Positions 1-12,905 of a DNA stretch of 12,905 nt are shown one piece after another. Under the pieces are notes generated by a model. It ran no database searches, was not told the origin of the DNA, and was given only the letters and a program-made list of their open reading frames with translations. The DNA comes from Opitutus sp. GAS368 (GTDB taxonomy: Bacteria > Verrucomicrobiota > Verrucomicrobiia > Opitutales > Opitutaceae): contig CAMAVZ010000046.1 of the NCBI GenBank assembly GCA_945861645.1, positions 1 to 12,905 of the forward strand, given 5' to 3'. Numbering within the stretch: the stretch's first letter is position 1; every line of letters starts with the position of its first letter. The translations under genes and the position numbers were made by a program.

Positions 1-249
1 AAAAATCGTGGGCGGGTGGATATTCTTCGTGAAACGGCTGGACGCGGTGGCAAGACGGTAACGGTCGTGACAAATTTTACGGGCATTGGTTTGCCCGAAA
101 AAGAGCAACTCGCCAAAAAAATGCGAAATGCGTGTGGCGCCGGCGGGACGGTTAAAGACGGGCGGATCGAAATTCAGGGAGACCGCCGCAAGATCGTCGC
201 CAAAATTCTAACGGCGGCAGGTTTCCGTCCCGTCTTGGCCGGCGGCTAG
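1..249 (+). CDS. yciH: Translation initiation factor SUI1/YciH family protein (5'-truncated by window edge)
   Basis: Frame is open from base 1 (KNRGRVDILRETAGRGGKTVTVV...) to TAG at 247-249. It carries the SUI1-family motifs GRGGKTVT, CGAGGTVKDG and IEIQGD. Confidence 0.9.
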   Translation, partial: KNRGRVDILRETAGRGGKTVTVVTNFTGIGLPEKEQLAKKMRNACGAGGTVKDGRIEIQGDRRKIVAKILTAAGFRPVLAGG

Positions 250-284
250 TCGATCATTGATCGCGAGCTGCCCTCCTCCAGTCA

Positions 285-1163
285 CTACGCCGCTAATCCT
301 GCGGCCAGGGCCAGCGCGCTACGCGCTCGATTCATGATATAGAGATGATACCCCGGTGCGCCGTTAGCCAGCAGTCCGCGGATCTGCTCGAGCGCCCAGT
401 CGATGCCCATCATTTCAACCACGTCGGGATTTTCGGCGGCGACTTCGAGTCGAGTGATCAGCTGGGGGGGGAGATGCGCGCCGCACATTTCCGTAAAGCG
501 GCGTACCTGCTTGAGCGAAAGTACGGGCATGATCCCAGGCACAATGGGCACCGTAATTCCCGCGGCGCGGCATTTTTCGACGAATCGATAATAAACGGTG
601 TTATCGAAAAAAAGCTGAGTCGTGATAAACGCGGCGCCGGCATCGACTTTGCGGCGGAGGTGTCCGAGGTCGATCTCGAGGGAAAGGGATTCCGGGTGTT
701 TTTCGGGATAGCCCGCTACGCCCAAGCAGAAGTCGGCGTGGCGTGATTTTAGTAGCTGCACCAGCTCACTGGCATGGCTCAGACCGTCGAGCGCTGGACG
801 AAACTTGGTGTCGCCCTTCGGTGGGTCGCCGCGCAACGTCATGATATTCCGAAAGCCGGCTTGGTGTAACTGGTCAGCGGTGGCGCCAAGCTCGGCTCGC
901 GAGTGGCCCACACACGTCAAGTGCGGCATAACGGTGAAACCGAATTCATTTTTTAGCATCGCGCTGGCTTGGGCGGTGCGATCGCGGGTGGTGCCGCCGG
1001 CGCCATAGGTCACGGAAACAAAATCAGGCGCGATGTGCTGCAGGCTGGTGGCAGTCTGCCGCAGGGTTAAAAGGCCGGCTTCATCCTTCGGTGGAAAGAA
1101 TTCCAGCGAGCGCACGATGGGCTGCGTGGTCAGTAAATGAGAGATTAACCGATCGGGTAGCAT
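285..1163 (-). CDS. metF: 5,10-methylenetetrahydrofolate reductase
   Basis: 292 aa with MTHFR motifs SLEFFPPK, FVSVTYGAGG, PHLTC, LRGDPP, GYPEKHP, ITTQLFFDN and PGIMP. Confidence 0.96.
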   Translation of the reverse strand: MLPDRLISHLLTTQPIVRSLEFFPPKDEAGLLTLRQTATSLQHIAPDFVSVTYGAGGTTRDRTAQASAMLKNEFGFTVMPHLTCVGHSRAELGATADQLHQAGFRNIMTLRGDPPKGDTKFRPALDGLSHASELVQLLKSRHADFCLGVAGYPEKHPESLSLEIDLGHLRRKVDAGAAFITTQLFFDNTVYYRFVEKCRAAGITVPIVPGIMPVLSLKQVRRFTEMCGAHLPPQLITRLEVAAENPDVVEMMGIDWALEQIRGLLANGAPGYHLYIMNRARSALALAAGLAA

Positions 1164-1200
1164 TAAATATCAATACATCTAGATTTGATGATATGTAAAG
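1164..1200 (-). promoter_or_regulatory. Putative metF promoter/operator: AT-rich element with dyad symmetry
   Basis: AT-rich island directly upstream of the metF ATG. It contains the palindrome ATCTAGAT (1177-1184) and two overlapping imperfect ATATCAA-N6-TTGATAT-like boxes (1167-1186 and 1175-1194). TTTACA on the minus strand is a -35 candidate. Confidence 0.55.
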
Positions 1201-1250
1201 CTAAGAGTGCTCGAGCTGGGCCGGGCGCGAGTGAGCCGCCGAGTGCTGGG

Positions 1251-2369
1251 CTAGGCCGGACTGGTCGCGGCTTCGCGGGCGCGCTCGGTCTTTAAGCGCA
1301 ATTGGCCGCAGGCGGCATCGATGGCGTGGCCTTTTTCGCGGCGAAGGGTGACGGAGACGCCACCGTTAAAAAGAATTTTGGCAAATTTTTCCTGACGGGT
1401 GAGGCTCGGGCGTTTCCATGGCAGGCCCTCGACCGTATTATAAGGAATTAAATTTACGTGCGCGTGAAGATCGTAGGCGATGTCGCGTAATTTTTCCGCC
1501 TGTTCGAGCGAGTCGTTAATTTCCTCGATGAGGATAAACTCCAAGGTGACCATGCGCCCTTTTTTCTCCGAGAATTCTTTTACCGCCGGTAACAATTCGC
1601 GCAACGGCCACTTTTTATTGATGGGCATAATCTGCTCGCGGACTTCGTCGGTGGCCCCGTGTAAGCTAATCGCGAGGCGGAGGCCGAGGGGTTCATCCGC
1701 GAGTTGCTTAATGCGCGGGACGAGTCCGGACGTGGAGAGGGTGATCCGGCGGGCGCCGAACCCGAGGCCCCATTCCGCATTCAGAATGGTCAGAGCGCGG
1801 ATGATGGCATCGTAGTTGTGCAGCGGCTCACCCATGCCCATGACGACCAGATTATCAAAAGAGGCGAGTTCTGCCCGGGCGCGAGGGGTGCGCTCATCTT
1901 CTTGTCGGCAGACTTGGATCAGTTGGTGCACGATCTCGCCCGCGCTCAGGTTGCGTTTGAGGCCTTCCAGGCCTGAGGCGCAAAATTTGCAACCCATGGC
2001 GCAGCCCACTTGGGTCGAAATGCAGATGGTTTTGCGCGAATTTTCCTGGCCGACGCCCAATTGGGGGGCGCGGATGATGACGGTCTCAATGAGGGCTTGA
2101 TCGCTTAATTCGAGTAATAATTTATCCGTCACATCTTCTGATTGTTTGGTGAGGACGAAGGCGGTGGGGTTGAGCTCGAACGTTTCGTCGAGCCATTGGC
2201 GCAGCGGCACCGAGAGATTAGTCATCTCAGGCCAAGTGCTGACGCGTTTTTTATAAAGCCAATCCAGAATCTGCCGCGCGCGAAAAGCCGGATGACCATG
2301 CTCGGTGAGCAGCAGGGTGAGGGATTCGAGCGTTTCGCCGTGGAGGGCGCGCTTGGTGGTGGGCATCAT
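1251..2369 (-). CDS. rlmN: Radical SAM 23S rRNA m2A2503/tRNA methyltransferase RlmN
   Basis: CxxxCxxC motif (CAMGCKFC), ICISTQVGC, MGMGEPL, SLHG, VNLIPYN and C-terminal IDAACGQL. Start placed at the ATG ATG at 2369/2366 rather than 2435. Confidence 0.95.
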   Translation of the reverse strand: MMPTTKRALHGETLESLTLLLTEHGHPAFRARQILDWLYKKRVSTWPEMTNLSVPLRQWLDETFELNPTAFVLTKQSEDVTDKLLLELSDQALIETVIIRAPQLGVGQENSRKTICISTQVGCAMGCKFCASGLEGLKRNLSAGEIVHQLIQVCRQEDERTPRARAELASFDNLVVMGMGEPLHNYDAIIRALTILNAEWGLGFGARRITLSTSGLVPRIKQLADEPLGLRLAISLHGATDEVREQIMPINKKWPLRELLPAVKEFSEKKGRMVTLEFILIEEINDSLEQAEKLRDIAYDLHAHVNLIPYNTVEGLPWKRPSLTRQEKFAKILFNGGVSVTLRREKGHAIDAACGQLRLKTERAREAATSPA

Positions 2370-2487
2370 GACTCGCGAGGTTTGCGCTGGTCGGAGCCAG
2401 CTGGCAAGCGATGAAGCGCCGCCCGCCGCGCGCATCGCTAAAAGAGGGATTGCTCGCCTAGCGGCGGCCGCCCAAGTTTAGCCAAGC

Positions 2488-3627
2488 ATGAACCTCATTC
2501 ACCGGCATATTTTTGCGAACGTCATCCTGACGTGTGCTGCGGCGGTAGGCTTGTTTGCTTTTGTGCTCATGATGGGCAACGCGCTGAAAGATTTACTGCC
2601 GCTCATGCTAGCGGGGCAATTAGCCTGGGATACCTCCCTGCGCTTGGTCGGACTATTAGTGCCGTTTGTCGTCTCCTACGCATTGCCGATGGGCATGTTG
2701 ACGGGGATTTTATTGGTGTTAGGGCGCATGTCTGCGGAAGGCGAAATTACCGCGCTGCGGGCTGCGGGCTTGAGTGTGGCCTGGTTATCCGCGCCGATAT
2801 TATTTGCGGCGATTCTGGGGGTCATTCTTTGCGGCTTGATCAATTTTCAATTTATGCCGGTCGCGCGGCTTACCTATCACCGCGAGATGGCGGCGGCCGT
2901 GCAGCAAAATCCGCTGAGCTTTATTGTCCCCAAAACTTTTATTCGGGATTTTCCGGGGATAGTGCTGTACGCCGGCGAAAAAAAGGGAGCAGCGCTCAAA
3001 GATTTTTGGCTCTGGGAGTTGGACACGAAAAATCGGGTGAAGCGATTTGCCCGATCTGATTCCGGCCGGCTTAGTTTTGATGAGGCGAACAATAAATTAA
3101 TTCTGACCTTAGAACGAACATCGGCCGAGGTGCGGGATGAGCAAGACCCCGAGAATTTTACCGCGGCGCGCGGAGCCGCCGCGTGGGATCAAGCAACGTT
3201 TGATCTACCGCTGGATAAGGTCACCGGGCAGCGCACGGTTGGGCTCAAGGACAAATGGCTGACCTTTAGTCAGCTGGTGGCAAAATGGCGCCGGCTGAAC
3301 GTGCCGGATGCCAAATTGACGACAGCGGAGCAAGCCAAGCAACAGATGCGCGTGCAGATTGCCCTGCATGAAAAATTTGCTACGGCCTTCTCCGTCTTAT
3401 CGTTTGCGCTCATTGCTATTCCTCTGGGGATCAAGGCTTCGCGTAAAGAAACCTCCGCCAATCTTGGGCTGGGCTTAGCTCTGACGATGGCCTATTATTT
3501 CGGGACGATTATCGCAAGCTGGTGTGATAATTATATCGGTTTACGGCCCGACCTGCTCATGTGGGTGCCGACGCTCGCTTTTCAGGCTTTAGGGCTTTGG
3601 ATGTTTTATAAAATTGATCGTGCTTAG
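2488..3627 (+). CDS. LptF/LptG (YjgP/YjgQ) family LPS export permease
   Basis: 379 aa with three N-terminal TM segments, the motif GRMSAEGEITALRAAGLS, a periplasmic beta-rich domain and three C-terminal TM segments (ALIAIPLG...). I cannot tell LptF from LptG by eye. Confidence 0.9.
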   Translation: MNLIHRHIFANVILTCAAAVGLFAFVLMMGNALKDLLPLMLAGQLAWDTSLRLVGLLVPFVVSYALPMGMLTGILLVLGRMSAEGEITALRAAGLSVAWLSAPILFAAILGVILCGLINFQFMPVARLTYHREMAAAVQQNPLSFIVPKTFIRDFPGIVLYAGEKKGAALKDFWLWELDTKNRVKRFARSDSGRLSFDEANNKLILTLERTSAEVRDEQDPENFTAARGAAAWDQATFDLPLDKVTGQRTVGLKDKWLTFSQLVAKWRRLNVPDAKLTTAEQAKQQMRVQIALHEKFATAFSVLSFALIAIPLGIKASRKETSANLGLGLALTMAYYFGTIIASWCDNYIGLRPDLLMWVPTLAFQALGLWMFYKIDRA

Positions 3628-3652
3628 CCCAGATCATGGCGAAATCGCGGTC

Positions 3653-3680
3653 TGTAACCCATCGAGCAGTAGCGCGTCTC
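3653..3680 (+). promoter_or_regulatory. ECF sigma-type promoter, probably autoregulatory
   Basis: TGTAAC (3653-3658), 16-nt spacer, CGTCTC (3675-3680), ending 27 nt before the sigma factor ATG. This matches the general ECF AAC...CGT promoter geometry. Confidence 0.7.
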
Positions 3681-3707
3681 TAGTGAGGTGTTAGTTTATC
3701 ACTCTCT

Positions 3708-4301
3708 ATGGATCCAGCTGAAGCCGCTTTTGATGTGGCCGCCTGTCTTAAATTGGTTCGCCACCGCGACCAAACGGCGGCGCGGGAACTCGTGGAGCAT
3801 CTCCACCCTCTGGTTATTCGGATTGTGCGCGCCCGGCTCCCGCGGCGCGTGGCCGAAGAAGACCTTGTGCAGGATATTTTTCTGAAAATGTTCACTCGCC
3901 TCGAACAATATCAAGGTAATGTGCCGTTCCCACACTGGGTGTCGCGGATCGCGGTGACGACCTGCATTGATCAGCTGCGTGCGCAGCAGCGCCGGCCGGA
4001 ATTTCGCTGGGCTGACTTATCTGAACAGGAAGCGGAAGTGCTCGATGCGGTCCTCACTGATGGTCGCGAGCCGCGCCCGGGTGATGCGTTAGCCGCGCGC
4101 GAGCTGGTCGATAAATTGCTCACGCAGCTCAAGCCGGATGATCAGCTCGTCATTCAATTATTAGATTTGGAGCAAAAAACGATGGTCGAGATCAGCGCTC
4201 TCACCGGTTGGAATCAGACACTCATTAAGGTGCGCGCTTTCCGCGCCCGCCGAAAATTGCAGAAATTATTTCAAACCTTAACCAGCAAGGAGAAATCATG
4301 A
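3708..4301 (+). CDS. ECF-family RNA polymerase sigma-70 factor
   Basis: 197 aa with region 2 (AEEDLVQDIFLKMF...FPHWVSRIAVTTCIDQLR) and region 4.2 HTH (EISALTGWNQTLIKVRAFRARRKL). Confidence 0.93.
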   Translation: MDPAEAAFDVAACLKLVRHRDQTAARELVEHLHPLVIRIVRARLPRRVAEEDLVQDIFLKMFTRLEQYQGNVPFPHWVSRIAVTTCIDQLRAQQRRPEFRWADLSEQEAEVLDAVLTDGREPRPGDALAARELVDKLLTQLKPDDQLVIQLLDLEQKTMVEISALTGWNQTLIKVRAFRARRKLQKLFQTLTSKEKS

Positions 4302-4591
4302 ACCGGTTCAATCGTTCCTGGCAGAAACTGACGGCGCTCGCCCGGCAGGTACCTGCCGCTGAGTGGGAGTCGGCACCTTTGGGGTTGGCGACACGCGTCG
4401 TCGCTCGGGCCTGGTCCGAGCCGGCGGCGCGGCCTTGGGCGGTGATGGAACGTTTCGCGTTCCGGGGTCTCATGGTGGCCGTGGCGCTCGGTGGAGCTGC
4501 GGCAATTTTTGATGATAGTGGGTCTACCGCTGAGCCCAATGAAGATTACGCGAACGCGGATACCGTCAATGAACTGCTGGACCTGACTTAA
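4298..4591 (+). CDS. Small single-TM protein, putative anti-sigma factor
   Basis: 97 aa. ATGA overlap with the sigma factor stop, N-terminal cytoplasmic helices (APLGLATRVVARAW), one hydrophobic segment (FAFRGLMVAVALGGAAAIF) and a short acidic tail. Confidence 0.75.
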   Translation: MNRFNRSWQKLTALARQVPAAEWESAPLGLATRVVARAWSEPAARPWAVMERFAFRGLMVAVALGGAAAIFDDSGSTAEPNEDYANADTVNELLDLT

Positions 4592-4592
4592 A

Positions 4593-5084
4593 ATGAATAA
4601 ACCCTGGAAATTAATTCTTCTCTTAATCGGTATTTTTATCGCGGGTAGTGTGACGGGTGCCTTGGTCATGCAGAAAATTGGCCGAGCCGCGGCGGCGAAG
4701 CGTCCGCTGCCAGAGCAATGGGCTCCACTCCATTTGAAGCGGCTAGTCGATCGGCTGGATTTACAGCCGGAGCAGGTTGACCAATTGCGGCCGATCGTCC
4801 GTCGCAATATGGAGCAGCTTAATCGGCTACGGGCTTTTTCTCTGGCTGAGACCAAGAGTGGGGTGGAACAGATGGAACGAGAAATTGCCGATAAATTGCG
4901 TCCGGAGCAGCGCGCCAAATTTGAGCAGATGAACAAAGAAATGCGGGAGCGCGCCAAACGGTTGGGCCATGATCGTCCGCCCGGTGGCCCCAACGCGCCC
5001 CGCCCAGAACGGACTCGCCCCAGCGGCGGGTCGCCGTTGCCGCCCGGCGATGGTCCGGCCTCAGAGAAGCCAAGGCATCACTGA
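4593..5084 (+). CDS. Membrane-anchored periplasmic helical protein, Spy/CpxP/ZraP/CnrX-like
   Basis: 163 aa with an N-terminal anchor (WKLILLLIGIFIAGSVTGALV), two LTxxQ-like motifs (LDLQPEQ, KLRPEQRAKF) and a Pro/Gly-rich tail. Starts 1 nt after the previous stop. Confidence 0.75.
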   Translation: MNKPWKLILLLIGIFIAGSVTGALVMQKIGRAAAAKRPLPEQWAPLHLKRLVDRLDLQPEQVDQLRPIVRRNMEQLNRLRAFSLAETKSGVEQMEREIADKLRPEQRAKFEQMNKEMRERAKRLGHDRPPGGPNAPRPERTRPSGGSPLPPGDGPASEKPRHH

Positions 5085-5159
5085 TCGGGGTCGGCTCGCT
5101 TCGGTTATTTTTTCTACCAGCTCAGCGTGGCGTGAGTTGACCGACATTTTTTATTTTAG

Positions 5160-5187
5160 TTGTCAGGGTAAGGTGTCCGCCTACGTT
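5160..5187 (+). promoter_or_regulatory. Sigma-70 promoter of the SRP RNA
   Basis: TTGTCA (5160-5165), 16-nt spacer, TACGTT (5182-5187), ending 6 nt before the RNA stem. An AT-rich UP-like tract lies upstream. Confidence 0.65.
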
Positions 5188-5193
5188 CTGCCT

Positions 5194-5291
5194 TGGCTAG
5201 GCGCCATGCATGAGTAGGCGCGTGAACCCCGCCAGGGCCGGAAGGCAGCAACGGTGACGACGTCCTCCCAGTGCCGTGGATTGCCTAGCCA
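5194..5291 (+). ncRNA. ffs: Small bacterial signal recognition particle RNA (4.5S)
   Basis: Helix-8 signature CAGGGCCGGAAGGCAGCA with a GGAA tetraloop. Terminal stem TGGCTAGGC (5194-5202)/GCCTAGCCA (5283-5291), 98 nt overall, followed by T6 (5293-5298). Position directly upstream of dnaX is a known synteny. Confidence 0.93.
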
Positions 5292-5393
5292 CTTTTTTAA
5301 GCGCCGGCCCGGCTAAAGCGGTGAAGCCTTAAAGAAATCAGAAACGAGGGCTGGATTTTTTATCGCATCGGTCTTTCAGTCATTCCGTCCTTC

Positions 5394-6536
5394 ATGGCCA
5401 CCCCTTATCAAGTCATTGCCCGCAAGTGGCGCCCGCAGACCTTTGACGATGTCGTCGGGCAGGATCATGTGGTGCGTACGCTGAAAAATGCCATTGCGCG
5501 CAATCGCATCGCCCACGCTTATTTATTAGTGGGACCGCGCGGCACGGGTAAGACCAGCACGGCCCGGATTTTCGCCAAGGCGCTCAATGCCACTGGTGGT
5601 CCCAACGCCAGTTTTGATCCGCTTGATCCCATTTGTGCGGATATCGCAGAAGGTCGTTGTTTGGATGTGATCGAATTCGATGCGGCGTCCAATACGCAAG
5701 TCGACAAGGTGCGCGAGTTCATCATCGACACCGTGGCCTATGCGCCGGCGCAGGCGCGCTTCAAGGTCTACATCATTGATGAGGTGCACATGCTTTCGGC
5801 GGGCTCCTTCAATGCCTTGCTGAAAACGCTCGAGGAGCCGCCCGCGCACGTGAAATTTATTTTCGCCACGACGGATCCGCAGAAAATGCCGGCAACCGTT
5901 ATTTCCCGTTGTCAGCGTTTTGATCTTAAGCCCATTCCCAGCGAGCTGATTGTGCAGCGGCTGAAGAAAATCGCGGTGGCCGATAAGATTAAAGTCAGTG
6001 ACGCGGCCTTGGCCAGTATTGCGCGCATGGCGGATGGCGGCATGCGGGACGCTCAATCTATTTTTGACCAGATGATTTCTTTTTGCGGCACGGAGGTCGG
6101 TGAGGCGGATGTGCTCGATGTCTATGGGTTGGTCGCCGAGGGAAAAATCGCGGCGCTCGCGGCGGCGCTGGCCGTGGCTGATCATAAGAAAATTATCGAG
6201 CTGGTCGACGAAGCGGACGAAAACGGCCGCGACCTTTTTCGCTTACTGGTAGATTTGCAGACCCACGTGCAGACGGCTTTGCTCGCGGCAATCGCGCAGG
6301 GCGGGACCAGCGAGCGGTTAGGGGCTCCGCTGACCACCGAACAGTTAACGCGGTTGCTGGACGGGCTGCACGAAGGGGAGAACGGCGTGAAGCATGGTTT
6401 ATCCCAGAAAATTAATTTTGAAGTAGCCTTGCTCAAGGCGGTGGAGGCCAGTCGAGCCCGCGCGATTGACAGCTTGATTAAAGAAATTGCGACGCTGGCC
6501 GAAGGCTTACCCGAAGGCTCAAAAAAAAACGACTAA
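5394..6536 (+). CDS. dnaX: DNA polymerase III clamp loader subunit gamma/tau (zero-frame product is gamma-sized, 380 aa)
   Basis: [13 protein letters not shown], Walker [14 protein letters not shown], Walker [24 protein letters not shown] motif (ISRCQRF) and GGMRDA. Confidence 0.96.
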
Positions 6537-6559
6537 CGACCCCGGCTGACGGTGGGGCG
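6521..6559 (+). other. Putative recoding site: A9 run / A_AAA_AAC slippery heptamer with a downstream GC-rich hairpin
   Basis: Zero frame reads TCA AAA AAA AAC GAC TAA with nine As at 6521-6529. A modest stem-loop is possible in CGACCCCGGCTGACGGTGGGGCG (6537-6559). Confidence 0.7.
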
Positions 6560-6907
6560 AGTGGTTTAAATGGAGGGGCGTCGGGGGTGGGGCAGAAGGA
6601 ATCCGACGAGGAAGATGCGCCGATCGCTCGCGGAGCGGGGGGCACGCCTGCCGATGAGGCGATGCCCAGCGGTCCATCGCTAGAGGAAGAAGCGACTCTG
6701 CTGATGGCTCAGCGCGGCTTGGAGGAATTTTATGGACCGGCGCCGCTCGCGGAGAATTTGGCGCCGATAACCGCCGAGGAATCGTTACCGCCGCTCGAGG
6801 ATTTGGTTAAGCGCATTCCGCCGGCTACTCGTGATTTACTGGAAGAATTATTTCGCGCCCGTTTCGTCACGGTCAAGCGCGTGCCAAAATTAGCGCTGAA
6901 ATCCTGA
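6530..6907 (+). CDS. -1 frame extension of dnaX (tau-like C-terminal part); alternatively a separate small ORF from GTG 6587
   Basis: The -1 frame has no stop between TAA 6479-6481 and TGA 6905-6907. It reads [29 protein letters not shown]..., a low-complexity acidic linker, then [34 protein letters not shown]. Confidence 0.7.
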
Positions 6908-6946
6908 AGTGGCGCGGCGCAGTCGGATAAAATATCTGCCCAGCGG

Positions 6947-8323
6947 TTAGGATTGAGTGATTCGGCTGTGCGGATCTTGCCGGCATTCAGTTTGGTAAAT
7001 TTTAAACTCCGCCGGGCGATAGGACCGGCCGCCCAGGTGGATGAGTACGTCGCCGCTGGTTTGCTTATAAGTGTTATGATCGAGGATGAATTTTTCTTCG
7101 TCAGCGGGGGAGATGATTGAATAGACGGCGGCACCATCGGGCGCCTCGCTGAAGGTATTGTGTCGAATATAAACCTTCCCCGGTTGGGTGTGAGGATTAA
7201 TTTTCCAGATGAACACATGATGGCCGACCGGCTGGGGATAAATCTCGGACTGCCGCGGCGGCAATTCCCCCTGCAGGCTGAAGCCTCCGCCGGCATCAAC
7301 ACTAACATTATACTCAAAGTAGATTTCCTGAGATGGCTCGCGGCATTCGTAAGCCGCAAATCCGCAACGACTGAAATGATTATATCTGAAATAAAGTCGC
7401 TCGGGGATGCGGCGGGTTTCCCCGCCTTGGTGGGTTACCCCGGCGTCGTAAATATTGTCAAAAGTGCAGTGCTCCACCGTGATGTCACGGGCCCCGTCCC
7501 ATAGTTCGATGGCGTTGCCAAAACGAATTCGTCGGTCGTTGTCCCAGACGGCTCCGCCGATGAAACGAAAATCACACGCCCGAATCACCACATCATGGGC
7601 CTGCCCCTGTTGATAGCCATGCACTCCGGCATTTCGAAAGCTGAGGTTCTCTAAAACGATATAGCCTTTTCCTTTAACCAGCCTTCGCTCGCCCCAGAGC
7701 ACACACTCGATACTCTGGTAGAAAATTCCTGGATTGGTGGATGCACAAAGTAAAAGTACGCTCTGCGGCGGAGCTTGACCCCCGCCCGCATCGCCCGAGG
7801 CGTTGCCCGTATAGTGCCACTCCCCGGGTTCCCGCAGCGCGGTGGCGGCCCAACGAAGGTTTCCGCAGCGCTCGCCTCCGTTGAATATCAGATTGCATAC
7901 TTTCGTCGCGAACTCGCCTTGATATTGCCAAATGCGTGGTCGCACTTCGATCCACTGGCTGGGATTCCCAATCGAGACCGATCCCATAAAAACAGGTTTT
8001 TCTCCTTCGCCATAGGCGCCGTAGGTAATCGGTGCGCCTTTCTCTCCGTCACGCGTATGCAAGTTTTCTCGAATGATACTGCCGCGCTTGAACAGGACTT
8101 GGTCGCCTCCAATAAATTCTCGGGCGTGATAAGTTTTCCATGGCTCTAAGTGGGTTGCACCGCTGTTGGCATCACTGCCAAGTAAGGGATCGATAAAATA
8201 GGTCTTCCCCCTCTGGGCCCCATGGGGTTGGGCGTAAAGCGGGGTCGTGCTCCGTCGGACAAAAAAGGCCCCTCCGGCTAGTAACCCTAATCGTTTTAAA
8301 AAAGATCTTCTTTTCGGATTCAT
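6947..8323 (-). CDS. Tat-exported right-handed parallel beta-helix (pectin lyase-like fold) protein
   Basis: ATG at 8323 gives MNPKRRSFLKRLGLLAGGAFF, a twin-arginine RRxFLK signal. It is followed by TYFIDPLLGSDANSG...PWKT, GDQVLFKRG, PITYGAYGEGEKP and repeated beta-strand units (IVLENLSFRN, ITVEHCTFDN, YIRHNTF). 458 aa; substrate unknown. Confidence 0.82.
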   Translation of the reverse strand: MNPKRRSFLKRLGLLAGGAFFVRRSTTPLYAQPHGAQRGKTYFIDPLLGSDANSGATHLEPWKTYHAREFIGGDQVLFKRGSIIRENLHTRDGEKGAPITYGAYGEGEKPVFMGSVSIGNPSQWIEVRPRIWQYQGEFATKVCNLIFNGGERCGNLRWAATALREPGEWHYTGNASGDAGGGQAPPQSVLLLCASTNPGIFYQSIECVLWGERRLVKGKGYIVLENLSFRNAGVHGYQQGQAHDVVIRACDFRFIGGAVWDNDRRIRFGNAIELWDGARDITVEHCTFDNIYDAGVTHQGGETRRIPERLYFRYNHFSRCGFAAYECREPSQEIYFEYNVSVDAGGGFSLQGELPPRQSEIYPQPVGHHVFIWKINPHTQPGKVYIRHNTFSEAPDGAAVYSIISPADEEKFILDHNTYKQTSGDVLIHLGGRSYRPAEFKIYQTECRQDPHSRITQS

Positions 8324-8474
8324 CTTAGTTGAGCGTTTTAATCGTGCGGCCGTTTTCTGGATGAGCAAATCTTTCCCGCTCGTCAGTGAACGGCGGCAAA
8401 GATTTCGACGCTGAAATTGATGGGCCAGTTTTTTTACGGGAAGGGAAAAGTGGGTGGGGGTAGTTGTGGTCGGC

Positions 8475-8834
8475 TCAGTGCGGCCAGTTTGCGCCCAGGT
8501 GGGGACGGCCGGACAGATCGCGCAGGTAAATGTACGTTTGGACTGTCTGCTGGGCGCAGGGCGGAGCGAGGCTGATGGGTTGGCGGGCGTAGAGTTGTTC
8601 GGCGACCCCTTCAAGGTCATCGAGTTTTTTTAGGGTCGGCTCATCCACTGACCAGATTTCTCCGTTCACCGCATGCTGCTGATCAGTTGAGGCGACCATC
8701 CCGGGATATGCGCCCAGTGAATAAAGCGTGAAGCCTGGCCGCGTGCGGGCGGGACCGAGAAATTGCTGCTGAGCGAGATAATGGTGATTCTGGCCACCGC
8801 GCATCAGCGTGCCGTAGACAAAAATAAGCGTCAT
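8475..8834 (-). CDS. Gamma-glutamylcyclotransferase (GGCT/AIG2-like, YtfP family)
   Basis: MTLIFVYGTLMRG signature, LGAYPGMV, VNGEIWSVD and LDDLEG with the putative catalytic Glu. ATG at 8834 overlaps the upstream TGA (ATGA). Confidence 0.9.
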   Translation of the reverse strand: MTLIFVYGTLMRGGQNHHYLAQQQFLGPARTRPGFTLYSLGAYPGMVASTDQQHAVNGEIWSVDEPTLKKLDDLEGVAEQLYARQPISLAPPCAQQTVQTYIYLRDLSGRPHLGANWPH

Positions 8835-10060
8835 GAACTGGGCGATTCCGACGCAGGGACCGCGAGCGCGGCGCAAACTAACGCGGTGATGTTATCACGG
8901 CCGGCGCGTTCGAGGGCGGCGTCGATCAGTCGCTGTGCGATCGGGGTGGTGGCGGACTCGCGGATCATTTCTTCGAGTTGGCGATCCCAAAGACCTTCGA
9001 TCAGACCATCGGAGCACAGTAAAAAGCGATCGCCGGGCGTGCAGGGTAGGGCGCCAAATTGCGGTTCGATGAATTGATGTTCTGCGCCGAGGGATTGGTG
9101 CAGGGCGTGGCGCATAGGATGCGCCCGAGCTTCACGTTCGGTGAGTTTCCCCTGACGGCGCAGCCAGCCCACGTGGCCATGGTCGTGCGTTAGCTGGATG
9201 AGTCCGCCGGTTGCCGGCAGATGGTAGATGCGACTGTCGCCAATATGACCAAAGTAAGCCCAGCCGGGGGTGAGCCAACACAGGCTGAGCGTGGTCCCCA
9301 TGCCGCGGCATTCTTCGTAGGATTCACCGAGCTTAATTAATTCCTGATGAATCTCGCGAAAGGCCTCGAGGAGGATTTCCGCATAGCCGCTATTTGGGCC
9401 AGGCGCGGCGCCCCGAAATCTTTTGGGCATCAGGCTCGTGATTTTATCGATGGTGATGCGGCTGGCAAATTCCCCGGAATTGGCGCCGCCCATGCCATCG
9501 CTCACGGCAAAGACAAAGTCGGCCTTCGTCCAGGAGGCCCCGCCGTTCTTGCCGAGGTAGCGAACTTCGTGGCCATCAAATTCCAACGCGAGGAAGCGGT
9601 CTTCGTTGATCGGGCGAACATGACCGCGGTGCGTCAGACCTGACCAGCGGAGGTGCGGTGACTGGGAGCTGGCGTCCGCGGTGCTTTCGCCCAACACGGT
9701 CGCGAATTCAAAATCGATCAGGCAAAAGCGACCGTCGCTCCGGCGGTAGGTGATATTGCGCAACTCGGGGTCATCGTGGCGAACGCCAAAGGCCGCGAGT
9801 TCAGCAAAGAGTTGCTGCATTCTTTCCGGGTTCAGCTGGTCGACCCGCGAGCCGCAATTGGTGGTGGTTATTTTTAGGTGGGTTTCATCAACTTCCAGCA
9901 ACTGCGGCACGAAATCGCAGCCTCGAGCTTCGAGGTAGCGAAGAACTTTAACCTCGTTCTCAAAACGCACAAAAGCTTCCGGTCCGCGGAAGGTTTTGTG
10001 GACGCTGCCATCAAAACCGATGCGGACGAGGGCGCGTTGGGTATCTTTAACCTCATGCAT
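8831..10060 (-). CDS. Fusion of a minimal protein-kinase-like domain (about aa 1-124) and a PP2C/PPM Ser/Thr phosphatase
   Basis: N-terminal part has VHKTF (Lys), FENEV (alphaC Glu), RHDDPELRNI (HxDxxxxN) and LIDFE. C-terminal part has RPINED, AVSDGMGG, GMGTT, HIGDSRIY, LTHDH, LLCSDGL and GRDNIT. Confidence 0.88.
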   Translation of the reverse strand: MHEVKDTQRALVRIGFDGSVHKTFRGPEAFVRFENEVKVLRYLEARGCDFVPQLLEVDETHLKITTTNCGSRVDQLNPERMQQLFAELAAFGVRHDDPELRNITYRRSDGRFCLIDFEFATVLGESTADASSQSPHLRWSGLTHRGHVRPINEDRFLALEFDGHEVRYLGKNGGASWTKADFVFAVSDGMGGANSGEFASRITIDKITSLMPKRFRGAAPGPNSGYAEILLEAFREIHQELIKLGESYEECRGMGTTLSLCWLTPGWAYFGHIGDSRIYHLPATGGLIQLTHDHGHVGWLRRQGKLTEREARAHPMRHALHQSLGAEHQFIEPQFGALPCTPGDRFLLCSDGLIEGLWDRQLEEMIRESATTPIAQRLIDAALERAGRDNITALVCAALAVPASESPSS

Positions 10061-10186
10061 GGGGCTGGGGGAGAGACGATTTGCGGGCGAGGGGGCGGTG
10101 GCAAGAGTGCGCTTTGGTCTGGGTAGGCTAAATTTAGCCCAAAATTGATAAAAGCTGAGTCATGTTATCAAAAATCTCTTTGCCTC

Positions 10187-10202
10187 TGGCACGTGAGATG
10201 CT
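10187..10202 (+). promoter_or_regulatory. Sigma-54 (-24/-12) promoter of the glutamine synthetase gene
   Basis: TGGCACG-TGAG-ATGCT against consensus TGGCACG-N4-TTGCW. GG (10188-10189) and GC (10200-10201) are 10 nt apart, about 80 nt upstream of the ATG. Confidence 0.85.
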
Positions 10203-10284
10203 GAATTAGGGCTTAAGTTTACCCCGGCCCTGCTGCCGTTTCGGCGCCAGTGGTCAGGTGGTTTCCCCCTTAACCTTAAATCAT

Positions 10285-11316
10285 ATGGCTAAATACAAAT
10301 TGGAATACATCTGGCTCGATGGCTACACGCCGTTAGCTAACCTGCGCAGCAAGACGCAAATCAAAGAATTTGCCAGCTTCCCGACTCTCGCCGATTTGCC
10401 CCCTTGGGGCTTCGATGGTAGCTCGACTCAGCAGGCCGAGGGGAAGAGTTCAGATATCACCCTGAAACCCGTCGCAGTTTTCCCTGATAGCACCCGGATC
10501 AATGGGGTGCTCGTGATGTGCGAAACTTTCCTGCATACGGGCGTGGCGCATCCTTCGAATTCGCGGGCCACGATTCCGGATGATGCCGGGACTTGGTTTG
10601 GCTTTGAGCAGGAATATTTCTTCTACCAAGACGGTCGCCCCTTGGGCTTTCCGGTGGACGGCTATCCCGCTCCGCAGGGTCCGTATTATACCGGCGTGGG
10701 TTACAAAAATGTCGGTGATGTGGCGCGCGAAATCGTCGAGAAGCACATCGATATCTGTCTCGATGCCGGCATTAATCTTGAAGGCATCAACGCCGAAGTA
10801 GCGAAGGGGCAGTGGGAATTCCAAATATTTGGTCAAGGCTCCAAGAGCGCCGCCGATCAAATGTGGGTGGCCCGTTATATTCTTGCGCGCTTAGCGGAAA
10901 CTTACGGCATCGATATTGAATGGCGTTGTAAGCCCATTCTGGCGCCCTTCCAGCAACCGCTGGACTGGAACGGTTCCGGCATGCACGCCAATTTCTCCAC
11001 GGCGCACATGCGCGATGTCGGCGGCAAGGCTTACTTTGAGAAATTGATGGCGGCCTTTAATCAATTCCGCGACGAGCACATCGCGGTCTACGGGCCGGAG
11101 AATCATCTGCGGTTGACGGGCCTGCATGAGACGCAATCCATCGATAAATTCTCCTACGGGCTGGCCGATCGCGGCGCTTCGGTCCGCATCCCGCACAGCT
11201 TCGTTAATAATGGCTACAAGGGTTACCTCGAGGATCGTCGGCCAAATTCTGCTGCTGATCCTTATTTGGTCGCCGGCCGGATTCTTAAAACGATCCAAAC
11301 GGTACCGACGAAGTAA
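10285..11316 (+). CDS. glnII: Glutamine synthetase type II (GSII)
   Basis: 343 aa from ATG 10285 with LEYIWLDG, WGFDGSST, FGFEQEY, QGPYY, GINAEVAKGQWEFQI, DWNGSGMHANFS, RLTGLHET, RGASVRIP and GYLEDRRP. Length and motifs fit GSII rather than the roughly 470-aa GSI. Confidence 0.93.
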   Translation: MAKYKLEYIWLDGYTPLANLRSKTQIKEFASFPTLADLPPWGFDGSSTQQAEGKSSDITLKPVAVFPDSTRINGVLVMCETFLHTGVAHPSNSRATIPDDAGTWFGFEQEYFFYQDGRPLGFPVDGYPAPQGPYYTGVGYKNVGDVAREIVEKHIDICLDAGINLEGINAEVAKGQWEFQIFGQGSKSAADQMWVARYILARLAETYGIDIEWRCKPILAPFQQPLDWNGSGMHANFSTAHMRDVGGKAYFEKLMAAFNQFRDEHIAVYGPENHLRLTGLHETQSIDKFSYGLADRGASVRIPHSFVNNGYKGYLEDRRPNSAADPYLVAGRILKTIQTVPTK

Positions 11317-11327
11317 GTTTCCTATAA

Positions 11328-11344
11328 CCGCTCATTTTGAGCGG
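11328..11344 (+). other. Hairpin just after the glnII stop codon
   Basis: CCGCTCA-TTT-TGAGCGG, a 7-bp perfect stem with only a weak U-tract. Confidence 0.5.
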
Positions 11345-11441
11345 CTTGCTGTTCTTCAGAACCTGCCCAAACGGGCGCTCTTGTTTCGCCGCCGTTTAAT
11401 GATGAGTAGATTTAATTCTGCCGTGATGGAGGCTTGGTCCG

Positions 11442-11472
11442 GCCGCCCGATGATTAGTCGGGCGGCTTTTTT
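11442..11472 (+). terminator. Rho-independent terminator downstream of glnII
   Basis: GCCGCCCGA (11442-11450)/TCGGGCGGC (11458-11466) 9-bp stem followed by T6 (11467-11472). Confidence 0.85.
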
Positions 11473-11513
11473 GTGGCTCAGGGTGGGCAAGCGGTATTGA
11501 GAGTGGGTTGCGC

Positions 11514-12905
11514 ATGACACCGATAACGGCAGATCAAGGGAGGCTTTTAACTCGGGCGCCTCGTGCGCAGCCTCCGCGGGAGCAGTTATTTATTTTTGGG
11601 GAGTGGGTCTTGGTCTTGGGGTTGGCGGCGACGTGGGCAGGAACTACGTTGTGCTTGGGTGGTTATTTAGCGGAGACGATGCAGGTGACGGCTTGGGCCG
11701 TGTTTGGTTTAGCGATGCTCGCTGGCACGCTTTGTCTGATCCGGCAGGATTCTCAGCCGGTGCCCTTAAATTGGGCGGTGTTGTTGCCGGTGCCCTTTCT
11801 TTTATATGCCCTGGCCAGTGTGCTGTGGCTGGCGCCCGCGCAGTGGCTGGCTTGGCGAGAGTGGCTACTTTGGGTGCAGATGTGGATTATCTTTGGGCTC
11901 GGGTTGCATTTCGGCCGCGGGCGTCGGCATACGTGGGTCTTGGTCGGTACTTTTATTCTGCTTGGGGTGATCGGAGTTATCCTCGCGGCTTATCAGCGCT
12001 ACGTCGATCCGCGGTGGCTCATGCTCGGTTGGGTCCATGGTTGGACCCAGGCGCAGTACTTTTTGGGACGATCGGCCGGCATGTTCGGTATTCCCAATAG
12101 TTTGGCAGGTTTATTGGAGCTGATGGCACCGCTCTGTTGGGCGCTGGCACTCATGCGCTCGCATCAGCTGAAGGTTCGTTTATTTTGCGGCGGGTTAGGG
12201 GCCCTGCTGGTTTTTGCGCTGGTGCTCAGTGGCAGTCGCGGGGGGTGGATAAGTTTGGCGCTGACCTTTTTGTTATGGGCGCTCTTGGCTGGTCGCAACT
12301 GGCGCCGGCGTTGGTTGGGGTTCATTTTAATTTTTGTCCTGACAGCCGTGGGGCTGGGGGTGTTGGACCGGTTTAGTGTTCATGCCCACGAGCGCATCCA
12401 GCCATTTCTTGACGGGAGGTTTGAGCTCACTCGCCCGATGATCTGGAAGGTAGCTGGGCAAATCTGGTCAGACCATCCGTGGCTGGGGGGTGGGGCGGCG
12501 GCTTATAATGTATTGTTCGATCAGTATCGGCCTCGTGGTTTTACGGATGAACCTATTTGGGCGCACAACGACTATTTAAATACGCTGAGTGACTATGGGC
12601 TGGTGGGTTTTGCCTGGTGGCTGCTTGCCGCCATTGGGCTGCTGGCGCTCGGTTGGCGGGCGGTGCAAAAGGCGCGGCGTGGAGAGGTTTCGGCGGGAGC
12701 TTTTTTTAGTCACTGGCAGGCGCGGCTGGGGTTATTTTTGGGTCTGGTTGCCTTCGCGCTTCATCTGGCGGTAGATTTTCATACCAAGATACCGGCTCTG
12801 GCTATGGCGTCGGCCTTGGTGCTCGCGTTGCTCTTGCGTGATGAAGCTTGGCTCCTGCGGCCGCTGCGGCCCGGTTTGGCGCGCCGTTTGGGCCTCGCGC
12901 TGGCG
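11514..12905 (+). CDS. O-antigen ligase (Wzy_C/WaaL-like) family membrane protein, 3'-truncated by window edge
   Basis: Translated by hand from ATG 11514 because it is not in the ORF track: multi-TM protein with RSAGMFGIPNSLAG, LSGSRGGW, TRPMIWKVAGQIWSDHPWLGGG and WAHNDYLNTLSDYGLVG. Start codon uncertain. Confidence 0.9.
   Translation, partial: MTPITADQGRLLTRAPRAQPPREQLFIFGEWVLVLGLAATWAGTTLCLGGYLAETMQVTAWAVFGLAMLAGTLCLIRQDSQPVPLNWAVLLPVPFLLYALASVLWLAPAQWLAWREWLLWVQMWIIFGLGLHFGRGRRHTWVLVGTFILLGVIGVILAAYQRYVDPRWLMLGWVHGWTQAQYFLGRSAGMFGIPNSLAGLLELMAPLCWALALMRSHQLKVRLFCGGLGALLVFALVLSGSRGGWISLALTFLLWALLAGRNWRRRWLGFILIFVLTAVGLGVLDRFSVHAHERIQPFLDGRFELTRPMIWKVAGQIWSDHPWLGGGAAAYNVLFDQYRPRGFTDEPIWAHNDYLNTLSDYGLVGFAWWLLAAIGLLALGWRAVQKARRGEVSAGAFFSHWQARLGLFLGLVAFALHLAVDFHTKIPALAMASALVLALLLRDEAWLLRPLRPGLARRLGLALA

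Follow-up and report, generated by a model that had tools for sequence, protein, structure and literature searches.

A dnaX gene split over two reading frames at a conserved A9 run in Opitutus sp. GAS368, probably joined by transcriptional slippage

Introduction

The DnaX product tau connects the replicative polymerase with the clamp loader, and a dnaX gene whose reading frame stops short of the tau-specific part raises the question of how that link is made. Such a gene lies in a stretch of 12,905 nucleotides from Opitutus sp. GAS368 (assembly GCA_945861645.1, contig CAMAVZ010000046.1, positions 1 to 12,905; hereafter the window, meaning the whole stretch analysed). Its zero frame closes after DnaX domain III, just past a run of nine A's (A9), and a further coding tail continues in the −1 frame. 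An earlier note, made from the letters of the window, had proposed a gamma-like protein as the product of the genomic frame, with the long form reached by a −1 shift or by one extra A. The comparison of this junction within the genus and across the order Opitutales indicates that the two open reading frames (ORFs) are probably expressed as one dnaX by programmed transcriptional slippage at the A9 run.

In Escherichia coli, dnaX is recoded by a −1 ribosomal frameshift at the heptamer A_AAA_AAG, with an upstream Shine–Dalgarno (SD)-like element and a downstream stem-loop. The choice between slippage of the RNA polymerase and a shift of the ribosome is weighed below, together with the possibilities that the tail is a free protein or that the split is an artefact.

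Layout of the dnaX locus

The zero-frame ORF of dnaX, delimited by the ORF list, its translation and domain matches, occupies positions 5394–6536 (+), starts with ATG and encodes 380 aa. The product is a bona fide DnaX protein of domains I–III, scoring 403 bits against TIGR02397 (cut-off 250), and it is also matched by PF13177, PF22608 and PF12169 in the domain profile search. The protein ends with ...LPEGSKKND*, encoded by the codons TCA AAA AAA AAC GAC TAA. The A9 run in these codons (6521–6529, +), a T9 template for RNA polymerase, is the proposed slippage site; it also contains the zero-frame heptamers A_AAA_AAA and A_AAA_AAC, and the zero-frame stop TAA (6534–6536, +) is situated two codons past it.

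The −1 frame, followed by translation, is open from 6482 to a stop at 6905–6907. Past the run, it holds a tail of 125 codons plus the stop (6530–6907, +), consisting of an acidic linker, which is predicted to be disordered, and then a conserved C-terminal helical motif. The +1 frame is shut by a TGA at 6547–6549 (+), located at +18 to +20 after the A9 run, which closes the frame of any mRNA with two extra A's or one fewer. By arithmetic, a long form would comprise 379 residues up to the third Lys and the 125 tail codons, and the resulting 504 aa agree with the length proposed in the earlier note. The coordinates on which that proposal was built, namely the 380-aa end, the A9 run, the −1 frame at 6482–6907, the TGA at 6547–6549 and a GTG with its GGAGG farther downstream, are all borne out on the sequence. 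The window itself is present in sequencing runs labelled freshwater or lake-water metagenome.

Conservation of the junction within the genus

The genus set consists of 22 loci with a visible junction, one from the window's genome and one from each of 21 other species; another two are truncated at contig ends and are left out of the junction counts. Relative to dnaX, all 22 loci encode the tail in the −1 frame, and the length of the A9 run is invariant while its flanks vary. The first A of the run occupies a third-codon position, in a codon that reads TCA in 19 loci, CTA in two and TTA in one, and the bases directly after the run read CGAC in 18 and CGGC in four. Among the other Lys codons of the genus dnaX genes, AAA accounts for only 92 of 452 (20%).

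The two frames that do not lead into the tail are closed at fixed positions. The zero-frame stop is found at the same place in 22/22 loci (TGA in 19, TAA in three), and the +1-frame stop is found at +18 to +20 after the run, again in 22/22 (TGA in 21, TAG in one), so that the two stops end 7 nt and 20 nt past the run, respectively. Simultaneously, the dipeptide that the −1 frame encodes across the +1-stop site varies among the loci (AD, AE, PD, PE, PS, SD, VE and VD). The +1 stop is thus kept while the −1 residues around it change, and therefore a stop is under selection in a frame into which no −1 ribosomal shift leads. Along the linker, from the run to the tail's conserved end (1367 codons over the 22 loci), the −1 frame contains no stop at all, compared with 46 stops for the zero frame and 47 for the +1 frame. 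This layout of the junction is far from chance. The A-run, the early stop and the −1 ORF, for which the earlier note had suggested aligning related loci, are hence all kept in every one of the 22.

Of 24 other genus genomes, 23 have a homologue of the tail, and the sole genome without a match is 83% complete. The window's genome, like each of five genus genomes of 99–100% completeness, has a single dnaX that scores above the family cut-off; therefore, there is no second, full-length dnaX able to supply tau. The open frame of dnaX measures 386–403 aa in four of these five complete genomes, and in the fifth it is cut by a contig end.

Frame of the tail across Opitutales

Across the order, dnaX was found in 147 of 151 genomes. 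The order set outside the window's genus comprises 102 genomes, made up of 100 fetched junctions, 95 of which allowed the final part of domain III to be located, and two more (L111–L210, L025 and L026). A run of A8–A11 at the end of domain III is present in 85 of the 102, no run of at least eight A's in 12, and five gave no hit. Of the 85 loci with a run, 32 have the long continuation in the −1 frame, 30 in the zero frame and 23 in the +1 frame; four loci without any long frame are still included in these tallies, L149 and L205 as zero type and L180 and L192 as +1 type. Over the 107 typed loci, genus included, the non-tau frames close at a median of 7 nt past the run, and only six of 214 close more than 60 nt away.

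The frame type is inherited but often changing. More than one type occurs within eight of 38 sampled families, and a flip by a single A is seen between two members of one family with identical flanks, where ccggcc-A9-tagag (L121) gives the zero type and ccggcc-A10-tagag (L125) the +1 type. On a quick tree, the frame type changes 24 times, compared with 35–48 times when the labels are shuffled; the tree was built from 83 columns of domain III and 102 rows, with four odd loci omitted, and it is weak, so that 24 is likely too high.

A hidden Markov model (HMM) of the tail, seeded from the genus tails and then iterated, matches 22/22 genus tails. In the order, it matches 31 of 32 tails of the −1 type, 26 of 28 of the zero type and 13 of 21 of the +1 type, the missed +1-type tails belonging mostly to one family, as well as 9/9 tails at loci without an A-run. 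In 26 of the 28 zero-frame Opitutales, the homologous tail is consequently the in-frame C-terminus of DnaX. The tail is thus the normal DnaX C-terminus in Opitutales, with its frame dictated by the length of the run. The core of the earlier note, a gamma-like zero-frame product and a long form reached through a −1 shift or an extra A, draws support from the split in all 22 genus loci and from the stop-free −1 linker, and it is further backed by the single dnaX per genome and by the in-frame fusion of the tail in these zero-frame relatives.

A tentative reading of this distribution, to which slightly less than even weight is given, is that the tau frame in Opitutales is not fixed by the DNA, slippage in both directions being efficient enough to serve any phase and the phase drifting near-neutrally. 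On such drift, the window's genus would be one frozen state (A9, −1), and all three DNA phases would give a workable tau:gamma ratio. DNA-level phase variation as a working mechanism was considered separately and rejected, no length variant having been found in five metagenome contigs and two DNA runs, in which contigs hide minor variants.

Several loci depart from the A-run layout or extend it to other groups. The run-less Opitutales (12/102; for example L196–L198, L200, L201, L203 and L207) carry a fused, often short tail, mostly in genomes of 0.8–1.3 Mb, and such reduced genomes may no longer make gamma. In loci whose titles read Verrucomicrobiota, Verrucomicrobiia or Verrucomicrobia (L036–L039 and L041–L043), no run of at least eight A's is present, and the tail is fused where the end of the gene is reached. 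A Thermus-like layout, with A9–A10, tau in the zero frame and nearby stops in both other frames, is seen in L049, L054, L057, L068, L079, L080 and L085, whose titles name Ignavibacteriota/Ignavibacteriaceae, Pyrinomonadaceae, Acidobacteriota, Bacteroidetes and Chitinophagales. In one 8.3-Mb genome, a single contig carries two equally scoring dnaX matches at a distance of 1770 nt (G139:C3:1506189-1509089), representing either a tandem duplication or an assembly artefact.

Structure and affinities of the tail

The best-conserved part of the tail, residues 89–125 (6794–6904, +), was delimited from the consensus of 98 tails and from an AlphaFold2 model, and the consensus contains the motif IPxxxRxxLEExFRAxFxxV. 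The model, built on the 98 aligned tails, has a mean predicted local distance difference test score (pLDDT) of 69.6 and a predicted template modelling score of 0.31. Residues 1–50 are of low confidence (block means 45–70; residues 8–23 below 50) and without secondary structure. Helices are formed by residues 51–63 and, at pLDDT above 90, by residues 89–95 and 98–108; the pLDDT reaches 93–96 over residues 91–110. Judged by its position in DnaX, the motif would be the site of contact with the polymerase, probably binding DNA polymerase III alpha.

Searches against known families return little. The window's tail has no Pfam match, and the 98 tails give only scattered, weak matches of single members at E values of 0.02 or above; among the 25 listed of these 28 weak matches, none is to PF12170 (DNA_pol3_tau_5), PF20964 (DnaX_C) or PF12362 (DUF3646). 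PF20964 and PF12362 have no match anywhere in the genome at E ≤ 10. The tail profile finds no tau chain among the PDB sequences, its only match being a pentatricopeptide repeat (PPR) protein at E = 1, and Foldseek of the tail model against the PDB gives nothing at E ≤ 0.001, a result of little weight as the model is mostly disordered. In the ESM Atlas, look-alikes of the tail fall in the PF12362, PF20964 and PF12170 clusters with scores of 0.82–0.84, and are leads only. The likeness of the tail to tau C-termini, put forward in the earlier note, is thus left unconfirmed by the profile searches and by Foldseek of the AlphaFold2 model.

Mechanism of expression

In the proposed mechanism, RNA polymerase on the T9 template would generate mRNAs with differing numbers of A's. 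The A9 (and A12) mRNAs would be translated into a clamp-loader subunit of the gamma-like kind, 380 (381) aa long and ending at the TAA at 6534–6536. The A10 (and A13 and A7) mRNAs would enter the genomic −1 frame and yield tau of about 504 aa, with the tail of 6530–6904, whose conserved C-terminal motif would tie the clamp loader to the replicase. The A11 or A8 mRNAs would run into the +1 frame and end at the TGA at 6547–6549, producing a second gamma-like form of about 385 or about 384 aa, respectively.

That slippage occurs at the A9 run is suggested by several features of the alignments. All nine A's are kept, including the synonymous first A, which favours slippage, as a −1 heptamer needs only six or seven of them. 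The closed +1 frame points in the same direction, because slippage enters the +1 frame and a pure −1 ribosomal shift never does. Furthermore, a run of at least nine A's, both non-tau frames shut, and tau in any of the three phases is what slippage predicts, and the combination agrees with the account of slippage in Thermus thermophilus dnaX. Across the order, the −1-type loci do not have stronger RNA structure downstream of the run than the others, the mean percentile being 0.51 for the −1 type (n = 31), 0.51 for the zero type (n = 28) and 0.46 for the +1 type (n = 22), which supports slippage over a ribosomal shift. Concerning the two routes named in the earlier note, recoding as such is supported, and the order-wide pattern favours RNA-polymerase slippage over its −1 shift of the ribosome.

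Some observations weigh on the other side. The 24 public runs listed for the stretch are available in the form of contigs, an assembled state in which minority variants are lost. Four of them, two from RNA libraries and two from DNA, were compared with the window and carry no listed insertion or deletion, a result that at the contig level speaks neither for nor against slippage. The only RNA-library contig that spans the run (X15, 6423–6847) reads A9 without an indel. The A-run also forms the zero-frame −1 heptamers A_AAA_AAA and A_AAA_AAC; a hairpin is situated downstream in the window and its closest relatives, so that the ribosome may contribute; and downstream structure is modestly in excess over the genus (mean percentile 0.26). 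Moreover, the tail is without a match to any known tau C-terminal family. Separately, another RNA-library contig (X16, 6250–6519) ends two bases before the A-run, whereas DNA contigs continue across it; this is a single case that may be due to chance.

A −1 ribosomal shift on A_AAA_AAA or A_AAA_AAC of the unslipped A9 mRNA, stimulated by the candidate hairpin at 6537–6559 (+), which holds the +1-frame TGA in its loop, would amount to the mechanism of E. coli dnaX, but with the long and short products exchanged. As the explanation of this locus it is unlikely, though it could act jointly with slippage in the genus. Both heptamers stand in the right zero-frame phase (TC A AAA AAA AAC), and the hairpin of the window has a minimum free energy of −11.6 kcal/mol, with 7% of GC-matched windows as stable. 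Hairpins begin 8–11 nt past the run in the window and its closest relatives; those of L001–L004 range from −11.6 to −18.5 kcal/mol, with at most 7% of GC-matched windows as stable, and the two closest relatives and L004 form perfect stems of 7–8 bp at −16.0 to −18.5 kcal/mol. Over the genus as a whole, however, RNAalifold on the 22 junctions finds no conserved downstream helix, only a 3-bp stem within the coding part, and the hairpin is in the best 10% of GC-matched windows in just six of 22 loci and at the 50th percentile or worse in five. In a fixed register, 59.7% of cells are paired, compared with 52.7% in shuffles (4/500 as high) and 37.5–50.6% in slid registers, but this test is biased by a register taken from some of the same sequences, and covariation is weak. 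For Chlorobium phaeobacteroides, PMC5009743 cites as unpublished a candidate of the reversed kind whose signals resemble those of E. coli; it also describes A_AAA_AAC and A_AAA_AAA as far weaker shift sites in E. coli. The heptamer A_AAA_AAG of E. coli itself is not present at the junction, whose zero frame reads TCA AAA AAA AAC. The window has GAAGG 4–8 nt before the A9 run, but such an SD-like element is not conserved, most genus relatives reading GACGGCTC (alignment A1). The absence of any structural excess in the −1-type loci of the order also counts against a ribosomal shift, which leaves the conserved +1 stop, the ninth A and the +1-type relatives unexplained.

The remaining explanations dispense with recoding. 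The 380-aa protein could be the sole DnaX, with the tail made separately from GTG 6587, or from a later Met, as a free protein of 106 aa; this is very improbable. The possible start (GGAGG at 6572–6576 with GTG at 6587–6589; 6572–6589, +) has its GGAGG 11 nt upstream of the GTG, and some in-frame start with an SD-like 4–5-mer is found in 13 of 22 genus loci. The 106-aa ORF is on record as an entry of its own in the ESM Atlas, a public gene call that fits the expectation in the earlier note of a tail called as a separate gene. However, the GTG with GGAGG is kept only in the window's copy, the two closest relatives and one other genus genome, so that the independent start raised as a caveat in that note is disfavoured. 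No start is fixed: nine of 22 loci lack an SD-like one, two of 22 lack any in-frame start before the conserved part, and the SD-like words in this region stem from Glu and Gly codons. Neither a promoter-like site on the + strand nor a terminator-like site was found within 5200–7100. Read backwards from the tail, the −1 frame stays open across the A-run in 22/22 loci, with no stop in its 1367 linker codons, and the homologous tail stands in frame at the DnaX C-terminus in 26 of 28 zero-frame relatives. A free tail would in addition be untethered from the clamp loader, as established knowledge of that complex implies. A miscounted homopolymer (a true A10) or a dnaX pseudogene, finally, would make the split an artefact or a sign of decay. 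Homopolymers are error-prone, and the source genome is a metagenome bin, 84% complete, in 116 contigs; nevertheless, the identical A9 in all 22 genus loci, DNA contigs of two other studies that cross A9 without a gap (X13, covering the whole stretch, and X9, 6250–6593) and A9 in 5/5 metagenome contigs under a search pattern allowing A7–A13 make the miscount, a further caveat of the earlier note, improbable in the extreme. Both ORF parts are under coding constraint and the gene is the sole dnaX of its genome, and sequencing error and pseudogene were rejected on the conserved A9, the independent contigs and this constraint. Transcriptional slippage at the A9 run is accordingly retained as the probable route to tau.

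Comparison with known systems

The window's dnaX is a further case of the two-ORF dnaX already described. According to Antonov et al. 2013 (NAR 41:6514, PMC3711429), recoding is required for tau in genes of this kind; of the 17 genes of that study, 12 have poly-A, nine of them with A10 and the Chlorobi with A9, A8 and A7, and transcriptional realignment was proposed as the mechanism. This account is repeated by Atkins et al. 2016 (PMC5009743) and Sharma et al. 2014. As in those genes, a gamma-length ORF ends at poly-A in the window, the DNA places the tau tail in the −1 frame, and the longer product needs recoding: a DnaX I–III ORF ends after the A-run, the tail ORF overlaps it in the −1 frame, and the break is conserved in relatives. 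The 'inverted logic' put forward in the earlier note consequently holds as a layout, and its novelty does not, given the two-ORF dnaX genes described in PMC3711429 and PMC5009743. In the main text of Antonov et al. (PMC3711429), Opitutus and Coraliomargarita have no occurrence, and 'Verrucomicrobia' appears once, in the genome table; a full-text search of the literature on dnaX transcriptional slippage in Verrucomicrobia gave only this paper. The accessible parts of PMC3711429, PMC5009743, PMC1088944 and Sharma et al. 2014 contain no mention of the +1 layout, where tau would come from mRNAs that have lost one A or gained two, nor was the roughly even distribution over three phases within one order found in these portions of the cited accounts.

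The dnaX gene of Thermus thermophilus also slips on A9, as described in PMC1088944 and PMC5009743, with 9 or 9 + 3n A's giving tau and the other mRNAs ending at nearby stops. Slippage was shown there by experiment (Larsen et al. 2000, as described in the same two sources), whereas here it is inferred from alignments. The two genes share an A9 run at the tau/gamma boundary and nearby stops in both non-tau frames and, on the slippage reading, the formation of two products from a single gene with no ribosomal shift. They differ in that the zero frame is tau and the slipped product gamma in Thermus, whereas in the window the unslipped mRNA would give gamma and the mRNA with one extra A tau. The Thermus type of zero-frame tau is absent from the window, where the zero frame stops at 380 aa, and is seen in 30 of the 102 other Opitutales. 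In the case of Shigella flexneri mxiE, slippage is required for the longer product through an extra nucleotide at a run of Us (PMC1088944). The likeness lies in overlapping ORFs joined by a non-templated extra nucleotide in a homopolymer, with a long product that depends on slippage; the gene is unrelated, coding for a transcription activator, and its run consists of Us rather than A's.

Like E. coli dnaX, the window's gene divides after domain III and has an A-rich shift site, and a downstream hairpin is possible in the genus. The heptamer is another one, no SD-like element is conserved, and the hairpin is weak and not general. Furthermore, the shifted product is the long one here and the short one in E. 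coli.

The biology of a two-ORF dnaX is hence not new, having been in print since 2013. For the genus, however, the essential long form is missing from any literal annotation of the DNA, with the tail on record as a separate small ORF, and pipelines that score completeness or predict the replisome will under-call tau there. The order-wide series is suited to asking how efficient and how symmetric slippage has to be for any DNA phase to serve, and how the tau:gamma ratio is set.

Neighbouring genes

The usual neighbourhood of dnaX is dnaX-ybaB-recR, and this arrangement is not seen 3′ of dnaX in the window. A 557-aa ORF (6947–8620, −) is convergent with dnaX instead and has no Pfam match at E ≤ 1e-5. 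Upstream of dnaX lies a sigma factor of the extracytoplasmic function (ECF) type, with Sigma70_r2 and r4_2 domains (3708–4301, +), followed by an overlapping 97-aa ORF (4298–4591, +) and then by a 163-aa ORF (4593–5084, +) without a Pfam match; within 3708–5084, the ORFs near the sigma factor may form an anti-sigma pair. Farther downstream, a short glutamine-synthetase-like ORF of 352 aa (10258–11316, +), matched by Gln-synt_N and Gln-synt_C, adjoins a gene for a PP2C-domain protein (8831–10060, −).

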